NCBI RefSeq assembly: GCF_017348835.2
Contig: NZ_CP071375.1
From: Escherichia coli
Lineage (GTDB): Bacteria > Pseudomonadota > Gammaproteobacteria > Enterobacterales > Enterobacteriaceae
Strand: one strand, 5' to 3'
DNA: 64,000 nucleotides
Under the pieces are notes generated by a model. It made no database searches. It was not told where the DNA came from and saw only the letters and a program-made list of their open reading frames with translations. Each line of letters begins with the position of its first letter. Positions within the stretch are counted from its first letter, which is position 1. The translations under genes were made by a program, and so were the position numbers. This document shows positions 1-10,224 of the stretch, piece after piece.

Positions 1-1187
1 ATAAATGCAGCAATAAAACTATTGGTATATTGGACAATGAAGCCAGTTAAAATAGGGGCGATAATTCCCGAGGTGTTTGCCAGTAAATGTACAAAACCAC
101 CAACGCCACCGACTTTATCAGGGGAAATATTATCGGAGACAATTGCCCACGGCGCGGCAGCGGCGAGATACATAAAGAAGATACCCATTGCCATTAACAT
201 CACTGCATTTGTTACGGAGGCAACCTGACCCGCAAAACTGATACAAATAGCCGAGAGAATTAACCCTCCAACGATAATTAACTTTCTGGCCAGCAGCAGA
301 TTTTTGGTTTTGCGATATAACCAGTCTGAAAACATACCGCCAATAGCAATACCAACGCTACCAATAATCCACGGAATGGCCGAGGCAATACTCATCTCCT
401 GAATATTTAGTCCCTTTTCCATTGAGAGATAACTTGGAAACCAGGTTAAAAAGAAATACAGAATATAGTTAATAGAGAAGAATGCCAGGCCAGTGAACAG
501 AACTATAGGCTGGGTCAGGTAGAAGATAAAAGGCACTTTGGCTGAGTCAGTGCCGTAGCCTGGCGCGCCTTTTTGCGCCTCATCATACTCGGCAATTTCT
601 TCTTTCGATGTATGAGGGTTATTATGTGGACGATCGGTAAATGCTTTAATCCAGAAAAATGTCCAGATAAAACCCAGAGACATTAAAATGATAAAAGCGA
701 TGCGCCAGTTCCACATCACCACGATTGCGCCAACAATCGGACCCGCAATCGCACCACCCAAAGGGTTGCCCGCGTTTGCGATGCCCACAGCTCTGGCGCG
801 CTGATCAAGCGGAACCCAGTTACTAATGCATTTGTTGATCGTCGTACTAATCGGGCCTTCGCTCATCCCGAATAATACGCGCACGATAAACAAAGATATA
901 TAACCGAAAGCGAGGCCAGTCAGCCCACAGAACAATGACCAGGAAAGCATTGCAATGGCAAAAACTTTGCGGGGACCATAGAGATCGGATAAATAGCCAC
1001 CAACAAAGTTAAATAATGCATAACCAAAGAAAAAACTACTCAGCATAATCCCAACTTCGGCTGGGTTTAGGCCAAAATGATCTTTGATATAGGGCATTGC
1101 CACAGAAAATGCCGCACGATCGAGATAATTAATTATTCCAGCGATAAACAGCAGGAATAATATTTTGGAATGCTGTCGTTTGAACAT
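1..1187 (-). CDS. MFS transporter (anion:cation symporter-like), partial: N-terminus in window, C-terminus beyond left edge
   Basis: Minus-strand reading frame from ATG at 1187 to the window edge (~395 codons); translation is dominated by hydrophobic transmembrane-like segments with MFS-type motifs; not in the supplied ORF track because it lacks a stop in the window. Confidence 0.6.
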   Translation of the reverse strand, partial: MFKRQHSKILFLLFIAGIINYLDRAAFSVAMPYIKDHFGLNPAEVGIMLSSFFFGYALFNFVGGYLSDLYGPRKVFAIAMLSWSLFCGLTGLAFGYISLFIVRVLFGMSEGPISTTINKCISNWVPLDQRARAVGIANAGNPLGGAIAGPIVGAIVVMWNWRIAFIILMSLGFIWTFFWIKAFTDRPHNNPHTSKEEIAEYDEAQKGAPGYGTDSAKVPFIFYLTQPIVLFTGLAFFSINYILYFFLTWFPSYLSMEKGLNIQEMSIASAIPWIIGSVGIAIGGMFSDWLYRKTKNLLLARKLIIVGGLILSAICISFAGQVASVTNAVMLMAMGIFFMYLAAAAPWAIVSDNISPDKVGGVGGFVHLLANTSGIIAPILTGFIVQYTNSFIAAF

Positions 1188-1254: not shown

Positions 1255-1941
1255 CTACATCACACCGAACTTTTCAAATACTTCCACGGTGCTCATGCCA
1301 TTTTTTATCGCCAGACGAACATCACTTTCGGTTGCGACTTTATTCAGTGCTTCAGCTATTACCTCCTTTTCAACTTCTTTTGGAATAACTAAAAGACCAT
1401 CGCAGTCGCCATAAATAATATCGCCGGGATTTATCACCACACCGCAAACTTCAACCGGGACGTTATAATCAATGACTTTTCCTCGCGGCCCCTGATCCTG
1501 AGCATAAGTACCATAACTAAATGTGGGGAAATTAATATCAAGAATTTCTTTAGAGTCCCGGACATAACCATCAAGAACAGCACCGGCGGCCTTAAGATGC
1601 ATAGCGCGAGTGGACATTAAACCGCCCCATAATGCGTAACGTAGCGAACTTCCTGTCGCAATATAAACATCGTTTTCTTTCAGCGAATCCAGCGCCTCAA
1701 ACATAATACCGAACGGTTTTTTACCAATTGCTGTATTCCCCGACGATGAGTGCAACTCATAAACATCGGCTTCAAGAACAGGCATAGCCCGCCCTGCGAG
1801 AACCATACTGGAGTGTAAAGGTTTCATTGAAGGAGAAACAAACTGATGCAAATATCCTTTGGTATCAAGAATATCGCCAACAACGGCAGTAAATAACTGC
1901 GTACGCATCAACTGAAAAAGTTCCTTGTCATTGTTCCACAT
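1255..1941 (-). CDS. RraA-family protein (HMG/CHA-aldolase / oxaloacetate decarboxylase-like)
   Basis: 228-aa ORF; C-terminal GDIIYGDCDGLLVIP motif typical of the RraA / dimethylmenaquinone methyltransferase-like fold; AGGA Shine-Dalgarno about 9 nt upstream of the ATG. Confidence 0.6.
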   Translation of the reverse strand: MWNNDKELFQLMRTQLFTAVVGDILDTKGYLHQFVSPSMKPLHSSMVLAGRAMPVLEADVYELHSSSGNTAIGKKPFGIMFEALDSLKENDVYIATGSSLRYALWGGLMSTRAMHLKAAGAVLDGYVRDSKEILDINFPTFSYGTYAQDQGPRGKVIDYNVPVEVCGVVINPGDIIYGDCDGLLVIPKEVEKEVIAEALNKVATESDVRLAIKNGMSTVEVFEKFGVM

Positions 1942-1992
1942 AATTAACGATCCTGAATTGTAGTGAGGAGGTGTGAACAGAGACTAGAGTAG

Positions 1993-2025
1993 AACCTATA
2001 AACCTGTCAAACAGGTTTATAGGTT
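1993..2025. promoter_or_regulatory. Perfect 15-bp inverted repeat (AACCTATAAACCTGT-caa-ACAGGTTTATAGGTT) in the divergent promoter region; candidate operator
   Basis: Read directly from sequence; contains a TGT-N3-ACA core of the kind bound by GntR/FadR-family regulators; lies between the divergent RraA-like/MFS genes and the GntR gene. Confidence 0.4.
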
Positions 2026-2239: not shown

Positions 2240-2965
2240 ATGGCAAGAATGATGACAACGAAAATTCAGCTAGAAAGTAACACGCTCTCAGCCCAGGTAC
2301 GAGACTACATACTGTCGTTAATTGCGCGGCAAAAGTTAACCGTCGGGATGCCGGTGCCCAGTGAAATGCAACTTACCCAGGAACTTGGCGTCAGTAAGGG
2401 CGTTGTCCGTGAGGCCTATCGTTCACTTGCCGCCCTTGGAATACTCGAAACCAAAAGTGGTAAAGTGCCACGCATTAAAGCCTTTGATTCTAGCGTGTTG
2501 CAGGTCATTTTTTCCTTTGCGACGCTGACCGAGCAGGTCAGTTCTTCACAGATACTTGCCGCCAGACGTTGGCTGGAAGCCGGATGCGTACAAATGGCGG
2601 CGCTCAATGGAGATGAAGAGGATTTTGCTGCGCTGAAGCAAGAAATGTCGTTGATACGCGAAGAGTTTTCTGACACCGAGCGTTTCCTGGAACATGATTT
2701 AAATTTCCATTTGCTGTTATCGCAGGCATCTAAAAATCCTTTATTCAGCATTCTGTTGCAGGCTTTACACACCCAGTTAACCCACTCAATGCGAGCGGGT
2801 CTGGAAGCACAACGCAATAATCATGAATATGAGCGTGGGATAATTGCATTGCACCAACGTGTTTGTGACTGTGTTTGTAATCGCGATGCTGAAGGTGCGA
2901 TGAAAGCCATGGATGAGCATTTCAACCTCTCTTCTGATGCTTTAAACAATCAGTCTCCTCTTTAA
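2240..2965 (+). CDS. GntR-family transcriptional regulator (FadR/FCD subfamily)
   Basis: ORF 2237..2965; N-terminal winged-HTH-like segment (QLTQELGVSKGVVREAYRSLAALGILE) and helical C-terminal domain; start ambiguous among TTG 2237 and ATG 2240/2249/2252. Confidence 0.7.
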   Translation: MARMMTTKIQLESNTLSAQVRDYILSLIARQKLTVGMPVPSEMQLTQELGVSKGVVREAYRSLAALGILETKSGKVPRIKAFDSSVLQVIFSFATLTEQVSSSQILAARRWLEAGCVQMAALNGDEEDFAALKQEMSLIREEFSDTERFLEHDLNFHLLLSQASKNPLFSILLQALHTQLTHSMRAGLEAQRNNHEYERGIIALHQRVCDCVCNRDAEGAMKAMDEHFNLSSDALNNQSPL

Positions 2966-2989: not shown

Positions 2990-3013
2990 AGGCACCTTCG
3001 GGTGCCTTTTTTG
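2990..3013 (+). terminator. Rho-independent terminator after the GntR gene
   Basis: Hairpin AGGCACC-ttcg-GGTGCCT followed by TTTTTT. Confidence 0.5.

Positions 3014-6332: not shown

Positions 6333-10224
<3,892 letters not shown>

Follow-up and report, generated by a model that had tools for sequence, protein, structure and literature searches.

What function does a long, perfect inverted repeat serve when it lies between a regulator gene and the catabolic genes that diverge from it? The question is raised by a locus of Escherichia coli in which such a repeat occupies positions 1993–2025 of the window, the term used here for the whole stretch of 64,000 nucleotides that was analysed. The possible answers range from an operator for the adjacent regulator, to a site for some other protein, to a structure that acts as a nucleic acid hairpin. 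The genes of the locus, the repeat itself and its counterparts in related genomes bear on these answers in different ways.

The dyad and the gene cluster around it

The dyad is inside a 298-nt intergenic region, between a leftward RraA-like gene and a rightward regulator gene. The divergent arrangement of regulator and enzyme or transporter genes that was reported in the preliminary description is confirmed by the gene coordinates and domains. The main features of the locus are as follows.

1–1187, minus strand: MFS transporter gene of the D-galactonate transporter subfamily (profile match), cut by the start of the window
1255–1941, minus strand: RraA-like (class II aldolase family) gene, the first gene of the putatively regulated operon (Pfam RraA-like, 1.1e-32)
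1993–2025, no strand: 33-bp perfect dyad (15+3+15), predicted operator of the adjacent FadR-subfamily regulator (inverted-repeat search and E. coli–Citrobacter comparison)
2240–2965, plus strand: gene for the FadR-subfamily regulator (GntR winged helix-turn-helix and FCD), the presumed binder of the dyad (Pfam GntR, 3.5e-13; FCD, 2.2e-22)
2990–3007, plus strand: terminator-like hairpin after the regulator gene (terminator scan)

The leftward operon continues beyond the MFS gene, to the left of the window, with Zn-ADH, SDR and split UxaA genes. Pfam assigns the operon genes other than the RraA-like gene to MFS_1, Zn-ADH, SDR and a split UxaA/GarD-type dehydratase. According to profile matches, the Zn-ADH resembles RspB or idonate dehydrogenase, and the dehydratase is of the altronate/galactarate type. 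Judged from this gene content, a sugar acid would be the substrate of the pathway and the likely source of the effector.

Since Pfam finds both GntR and FCD domains in the protein encoded next to the dyad (window 2243–2965), the regulator belongs to the FadR subfamily, and RefSeq labels its gene (2240–2965) as a FadR/GntR family regulator. The protein scores far below the cutoffs of all named NCBIfam equivalogs, for example 84 versus 311 bits for LldR, and is therefore not an orthologue of any named regulator. Its nearest named relatives in NCBIfam are NanR, LldR, GlcC and PdhR, and the nearest solved structures are 2di3, 9jpj and 6on4. Residues R56, E57, G73 and K74 of the recognition helix and wing are invariant across the compared regulators. 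Residues D152, H156, H204 and H226 of the FCD domain, which are presumably the usual metal-binding positions of this domain, are also invariant.

The cluster is part of a seven-gene island between metA and aceB, which covers positions 1–2965 of the window and continues to the left (L001:7368–13816). Ordinary E. coli homology resumes at about 2966, just before the terminator hairpin. The island is rare in the species: among 5,426 complete E. coli genomes, it is present in two, both of pig origin. Citrobacter has the same island at the same metA–aceB position, with about 82% DNA identity, equal to that of the flanking metA and aceB genes, and the island has the appearance of old DNA that has mostly been lost, not of a recent transfer. 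A paralogous cluster, in which a TRAP transporter replaces the MFS transporter, is widespread; it is located between gltA and abrB in 662 E. coli genomes, and its regulator is 63% identical to that of the window, with an almost unchanged helix-turn-helix. The MFS-type and TRAP-type clusters occur together in none of the E. coli genomes. In E. coli AR_0013, the TRAP-type cluster (L002:1831–9636, gltA–abrB) has the dyad ACCCTGTAAGCCTGTT-T-AACAGGTTTACAGGGT, which stops only 7 nt short of the RraA-like start codon, overlapping the likely ribosome-binding site. Elsewhere in the window, a 728-aa ankyrin-repeat ORF (8038–10224, minus strand), which RefSeq annotates as the type III effector EspL4, follows aceK (6333–8069) and overlaps its 3′ end. 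A literature search on the cluster, the regulator and the core sequence of the dyad found nothing relevant; the matches to the core sequence concern the SsoII/Ecl18kI restriction-modification systems, which are unrelated.

The dyad reads AACCTATAAACCTGT-CAA-ACAGGTTTATAGGTT. In an inverted-repeat search, its 15-nt arms are 100% complementary and are separated by a 3-nt spacer, so that the perfect 15-bp palindrome claimed previously is present exactly as described. The single strand folds with an energy of −14 kcal/mol (z = −9.2 relative to shuffles). A second copy with three or fewer mismatches is found neither in the 64-kb window nor in 100 shuffled sequences, and a 49-mer spanning the dyad occurs at one locus only, in two of the 5,426 E. 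coli genomes. Because the 49-mer is confined to one locus, a dispersed repeat of the REP/BIME, MITE or IS-end type is ruled out; a common repeated element was the finding that, according to the preliminary description, would have spoken against an operator.

A second, shorter dyad with a GCGATCGC core was also proposed just downstream. A loose pair of 11-mers that contain GATCGC is indeed present, AAACGATCGCA at 2035–2045 and TGCGATCGCTT at 2083–2093, with 91% complementarity and a separation of 37 nt, but the pair is lost in Citrobacter, the closest orthologue, and is rejected as a conserved element. A 500-nt stretch contains 15 short inverted repeats, of which this pair is one. Part of this second dyad coincides with another candidate site, 5 nt to the right of the 33-bp dyad:

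2031–2046, no strand: GTGTAAACGATCGCAC, a GalR/LacI-type 16-mer of doubtful status (consensus match)

This 16-mer differs from the GalR consensus GTGNAANCGNTTNCAC by one mismatch, at position 12. It also fits the 16-bp GalR/GalS pattern GTGNAANC.GNTTNCAC, with the essential positions 3, 5, 9 and 15 retained, and 0.16 such 16-mers would be expected by chance in 64 kb. The equivalent Citrobacter sequence, GGGTAAACAGCTATAC, has four mismatches. Since the 16-mer is not conserved, it is regarded as a lead only.

Conservation of the core across related loci

Related loci were gathered by a protein search with the regulator, followed by contig look-ups. The sample includes loci from E. coli, E. whittamii, E. 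albertii, Citrobacter, Sodalis ligni, Acerihabitans, Entomohabitans and Serratia sp., and, separately, Enterobacteriaceae H11S18 and three metagenome contigs; the whole set comprises seven genera plus metagenomes. Each of the 13 distinct related loci, whose regulators are 55–92% identical, has CCTGT-N3-ACAGG without a mismatch beside the regulator gene. The inner core is likewise free of mismatches in all 16 aligned sites and in ten of ten metagenome stretches, whereas the remaining intergenic sequence has diverged. In an intergenic alignment of seven species with a mean column identity of 50%, AACCTGTCAAACAGG is the sole invariant block. The intergenic regions of E. coli and Citrobacter are 76% identical. 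Their longest stretch without a difference covers 35 nt (1993–2027), a length reached by only 50 of 20,000 column shuffles. The site is thus conserved together with the regulator across orthologous loci, as is expected for an operator of the FadR subfamily, and in nearly all related loci it adjoins an RraA-like gene.

The conservation extends outwards from the core in a regular manner. The consensus of 26 half-sites is A-n-C-C-T-R-T-m-A-A-C-C-T-G-T, and positions −14 to −10 of these half-sites have information contents of 1.2, 1.5, 1.5, 0.5 and 1.8 bits. From this consensus it follows that the site consists of four pentamers with an 8-bp period, CCTRT-N3-CCTGT-N3-ACAGG-N3-AYAGG. In the window, the parts are as follows.

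1995–1999, no strand: outer left box CCTAT (consensus CCTRT), with its centre 12 nt from the dyad centre (half-site information content)
2003–2015, no strand: inner core CCTGT-CAA-ACAGG, a FadR-type GT-N3-AC palindrome (no mismatches across sites)
2019–2023, no strand: outer right box ATAGG (consensus AYAGG; half-site consensus)

Sites of the FadR subfamily have TKGT/ACMA boxes, and the distance from GT to AC is 3 nt in DgoR, ExuR, FadR, GlcC, LldR and PdhR (Suvorova et al. 2015, PMC4494728). The core CCTGT-CAA-ACAGG fits this palindrome, NyGT-N3-ACNy or TKGT..ACMA, with the same 3-nt gap. GT is preceded by T, as in TKGT, and this T in turn by C in place of the consensus T. The proposal that TGT-N3-ACA represents a core of the GntR/FadR type therefore agrees with the GT-N3-AC rule of the subfamily (PMC4494728).

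A scan of all collected loci revealed three extra perfect cores, which, at loci with a different gene order, precede other operons of the cluster. In Sodalis ligni (L009, 12213–12225) and Acerihabitans (L010, 10788–10800), a second site with a perfect core precedes an operon that encodes an MFS transporter and a LarA homologue. This operon neighbours the regulator gene, and larB/C/E-like genes are divergent from it. A nickel-pincer 2-hydroxyacid racemase or epimerase may belong to the regulon in these two organisms. In the rearranged contig L014, the extra perfect core is upstream of an MR_MLE-MFS-UxaC-RraA-SDR operon.

When 241 million metagenome records were scanned for the four-box pattern, ten stretches matched. 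All ten are beside a homologue of the window regulator, as found by tblastn, and nine of the ten are beside an RraA-like gene; the GntR and FCD domains were confirmed by Pfam for the two most distant of these regulators, L019 and L024. In L019, the four-box site CCTGTCAACCTGTCTGACAGGTTGACAGG (2202–2230) lies between eda-kdgK and an operon that contains the regulator and a gene of the mannitol dehydrogenase family, in a cluster of the hexuronate type. Since the FCD regulator of L019 is only 29% identical to that of the window, the motif is common to a wider clade of sugar-acid regulators.

Two other short sequences were noted in the intergenic region. In the E. coli–Citrobacter comparison, the second-longest run of identity, CTTTTTCGGTAACATACGA (19 nt, 2125–2143), is partly alignable in the more distant loci and may belong to the promoter of the regulator gene itself. 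A lone inner half-site, AAACAGGT, occurs at 2212–2219, some 20 nt before the start codon of the regulator gene; its left half is poor, and it is kept in Citrobacter, but the two sequences are close.

Proposed promoter overlap and alternative roles of the dyad

From the dyad centre (2009), the distance to the start codon is 68 nt for the RraA-like gene and 231 nt for the regulator gene. A position in the divergent region, nearer to the structural operon, is typical of a FadR-subfamily operator. The spacer and the inner box together form a hexamer that resembles a −35 element facing the operon:

2005–2010, minus strand: TTGACA, a putative −35-like hexamer formed by the spacer and the inner box, towards the RraA-like operon (spacer orientation and orthologues)
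1981–1986, minus strand: TAGTCT, a putative weak −10-like hexamer 18 nt downstream of TTGACA (read from the sequence)

In a promoter scan of the window, no sigma-70-like site is found at the dyad, TAGTCT being below the threshold, so that the overlap with a −35 element rests on the orthologues and on the orientation of the spacer. Read in the orientation of the operon, the spacer is T-[T/A]-[G/A]. It is TTG, which gives TTGACA, at every site located 67–99 nt upstream of a start codon. These sites include eight upstream of RraA or UxaA genes in the collected loci, those of metagenome contigs L018, L020 and L024, and two flipped sites on the LarA side. The TTG spacer faces the structural operon at every MFS-type and distal site, the flipped second sites of Sodalis and Acerihabitans among them, and a −10-like hexamer can be read by eye 15–18 nt downstream of TTGACA at each TTG-spacer site. 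The best matches of the promoter scan are TTGACA-18-TATACT in L014 (11/12) and TTGACA-16-GATACT in L008 (10/12), both with the −35 at the dyad centre, and the second site of L014 is overlapped by TTTACA-17-TATATT in the same scan. The presence of TTGACA at the dyad centre suggests that repression would occur by promoter occlusion.

The TRAP-type paralogues have a different geometry. Their dyad centre is only 24–29 nt from the start codon, a distance at which the −35 element cannot sit, and the operator must act at or after the start of transcription. The TRAP-type metagenome locus L017 (2666–2694), in which the spacer is CAA towards the RraA-like gene and TTGACA faces the regulator, is the only exception found to the rule of spacer orientation. 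As a separate observation, a CRP-like sequence, TGTGA-N6-TCGCA, is present about 46 nt upstream of the second sites of Sodalis and Acerihabitans. A weak CRP-like TGTGA-N6-TATCA, judged by eye, occurs at RraA-side sites and is absent in the window.

Since the motif travels with this regulator family, it is improbable that the dyad is bound by another transcription factor, global or local, that is encoded elsewhere and for which the proximity of the GntR gene is incidental. The GalR-like 16-mer at 2031–2046 and the CRP-like sequences that precede the second sites of L009 and L010 would be in favour of such a factor, but the motif accompanies the regulator family across chromosomal contexts, genera and ten of ten metagenome stretches, fits the FadR-subfamily GT-N3-AC rule (PMC4494728), and its full dyad sequence is missing in the remaining 5,424 E. 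coli genomes. The chance is slimmer still that the dyad, as a site of the adjacent regulator, serves for activation or for autoregulation of the regulator gene instead of repression of the operon. Sites located between divergent genes can act on either promoter or on both (PMC4494728), and the right arm of the dyad in TRAP-type loci contains a TTTACA that faces the regulator gene. However, the site is always much nearer to the structural operon, as with the 68 versus 231 nt of the window, it overlaps −35-like hexamers that face this operon, and the second sites precede structural operons only. It is also general knowledge that most FCD regulators of catabolic clusters are repressors.

The dyad might also act as a nucleic acid hairpin and not as a protein site, either as a stem-loop in the 5′-leader RNA of one of the two divergent transcripts, where it would affect stability, attenuation or masking of the ribosome site, or as a DNA cruciform. 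Its perfect 15-bp stem, with the folding energy and z-score of about −9 given above, and the overlap of the TRAP-type dyad, whose end is 7 nt short of the start codon, with a GGGTGA Shine-Dalgarno-like sequence are consistent with such a role. Across loci, however, the length of the stem varies, from 15 bp in the window to 8+3 bp in Sodalis and 5 bp in L014, and the sequence of the core is invariant, which is the reverse of the pattern normally shown by structural elements. The mismatch in the arms of the paralogue is a C-A on the operon strand, and if TTGACA is a −35 element, the dyad would not be transcribed into the operon mRNA. The dyad has no T-run and no terminator-like site in the terminator scan, and hence is not an intrinsic terminator; no Rfam match with E ≤ 1 is found in 1850–2350. 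Nor is there a clear excess of compensatory change. Symmetric substitutions in the arms, A/T to G/C at ±11 and A/T to C/G at ±9, were considered as a sign of compensatory evolution, and this reading was dropped. Covariation was counted in four pairs versus 4.0 expected, and in 11 cells versus 6.9, a number reached by 18 of 500 shuffles, the changes being inherited by lineage. Because covariation is not clearly above the controls, the symmetry of the arms gives no independent support beyond conservation of the consensus. With an unconserved stem length, no Rfam match and no T-run, a hairpin role is very improbable, the least probable of these three alternatives.

Operator model and comparison with known systems

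The reading that accounts best for these features is that the adjacent FadR-subfamily regulator has the dyad as its operator, and that the sugar-acid operon is repressed by occlusion of its −35 element and released by an effector; judged from sequence comparison, this reading is assigned a probability of roughly 0.8. The GntR/FadR operator predicted in the preliminary description is thus supported by the conserved core between diverged flanks, the FadR-type consensus, the copies at other promoters of the cluster, the GntR and FCD domains of the regulator, and the occurrence of the four-box pattern in metagenomes only beside such regulators.

Without inducer, a dimer of the regulator would contact the inner CCTGT-N3-ACAGG core through its two winged-helix domains. 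The outer CCTRT and AYAGG boxes, 8 bp further out on each side, would probably provide extra contacts or recruit a second dimer. Since the centre of the operator coincides with the TTGACA −35-like hexamer that faces the operon for the RraA-like aldolase, MFS transporter, Zn-ADH, SDR and UxaA-type dehydratase, the bound repressor would occlude RNA polymerase. The effector would be a carboxylate, probably either the sugar acid that is taken up by the transporter or a 2-keto-3-deoxy intermediate; its binding to the metal-containing FCD domain would release the repressor and induce the operon.

It is possible, although rather doubtful, that the four-box 33-bp layout represents a distinct binding mode in a clade of FCD regulators, in which two dimers or a tetramer assemble on direct-plus-inverted pentamers of 8-bp period, with a consensus −35 hexamer embedded at the centre, and control a previously undescribed non-phosphorylative sugar-acid pathway that ends with the RraA-like aldolase. 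As part of the same doubtful reading, an operon for a LarA-type (nickel-pincer) 2-hydroxyacid epimerase may also be controlled in some genera. In kind, the dyad appears to be a typical FadR-type operator for an unnamed regulator, with a somewhat unusual four-box layout. The current understanding of GntR-family regulation is not challenged by such a site, which would be a well-supported but ordinary type of control element, with a good phylogenetic footprint. The predicted operator and its regulator form a testable pair for an uncharacterised catabolic cluster, which consists of an RraA-like aldolase, a split UxaA-type dehydratase, two dehydrogenases and a sugar-acid transporter. With the motif, the members of the regulon can be identified; in Sodalis and Acerihabitans, the regulon would extend to the LarA-homologue operon. 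The motif could also guide the discovery of the substrate and supply an inducible promoter-repressor part.

Compared with the PdhR, LldR, GlcC and FadR systems of E. coli, the locus has the same type of regulator, with a GntR winged helix-turn-helix and an FCD domain, and the same GT-N3-AC layout with a 3-nt spacer as in their 7-3-7 palindromes (for example AATTGGTnnnACCAATT). The predicted site is, like their operators, in the regulator's own locus, and the genes concern carboxylic-acid catabolism. The half-site is different, however, being AACCTGT here and AATTGGT in those systems. Unlike theirs, the site is 33 bp long, about twice the usual site of a FadR dimer, and each of its arms contains a further conserved pentamer.

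The inner core is nearly identical to ACCTGT-N3-ACAGGT of AnsR, whose sites, ACCTGTnnGACAGGT, are given in a supplementary table from a RegPrecise-based set (PMC4494728). AnsR, however, is from Actinobacteria and alpha-proteobacteria, is concerned with asparagine catabolism, and has sites with no reported outer boxes; the protein sequences of AnsR and the window regulator are not close.

Operators with more than two boxes are known in the family. Weaker extra boxes 7–12 nt from the centre are common in GntR-family sites, and some of these sites have extra symmetry, as for SdhR, or repeats, as for NanR (PMC4494728). With its outer boxes, the dyad resembles the SdhR site (TCTTATGTCTTATATAAGACATAAGA), the (GGTATA)3 repeats of NanR, which is documented as binding in several dimers, and the sites with extra half-sites at 7–12 nt. 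As in these multi-box sites, the outer boxes are direct repeats of the inner half-site. The arrangement differs from those of SdhR and NanR in that each arm has two direct pentamers, and the two arms form an inverted pair with an 8-bp period.

The hexuronate and hexonate regulons of UxuR/ExuR, DgoR and LgoR are also comparable. Their regulators are also FCD proteins, and they repress sugar-acid transporters, dehydrogenases and dehydratases. The cluster in the window has its own distinctive enzymes, since an RraA-like aldolase replaces the kinase and KDPG aldolase of those regulons and the UxaA-type dehydratase is split.
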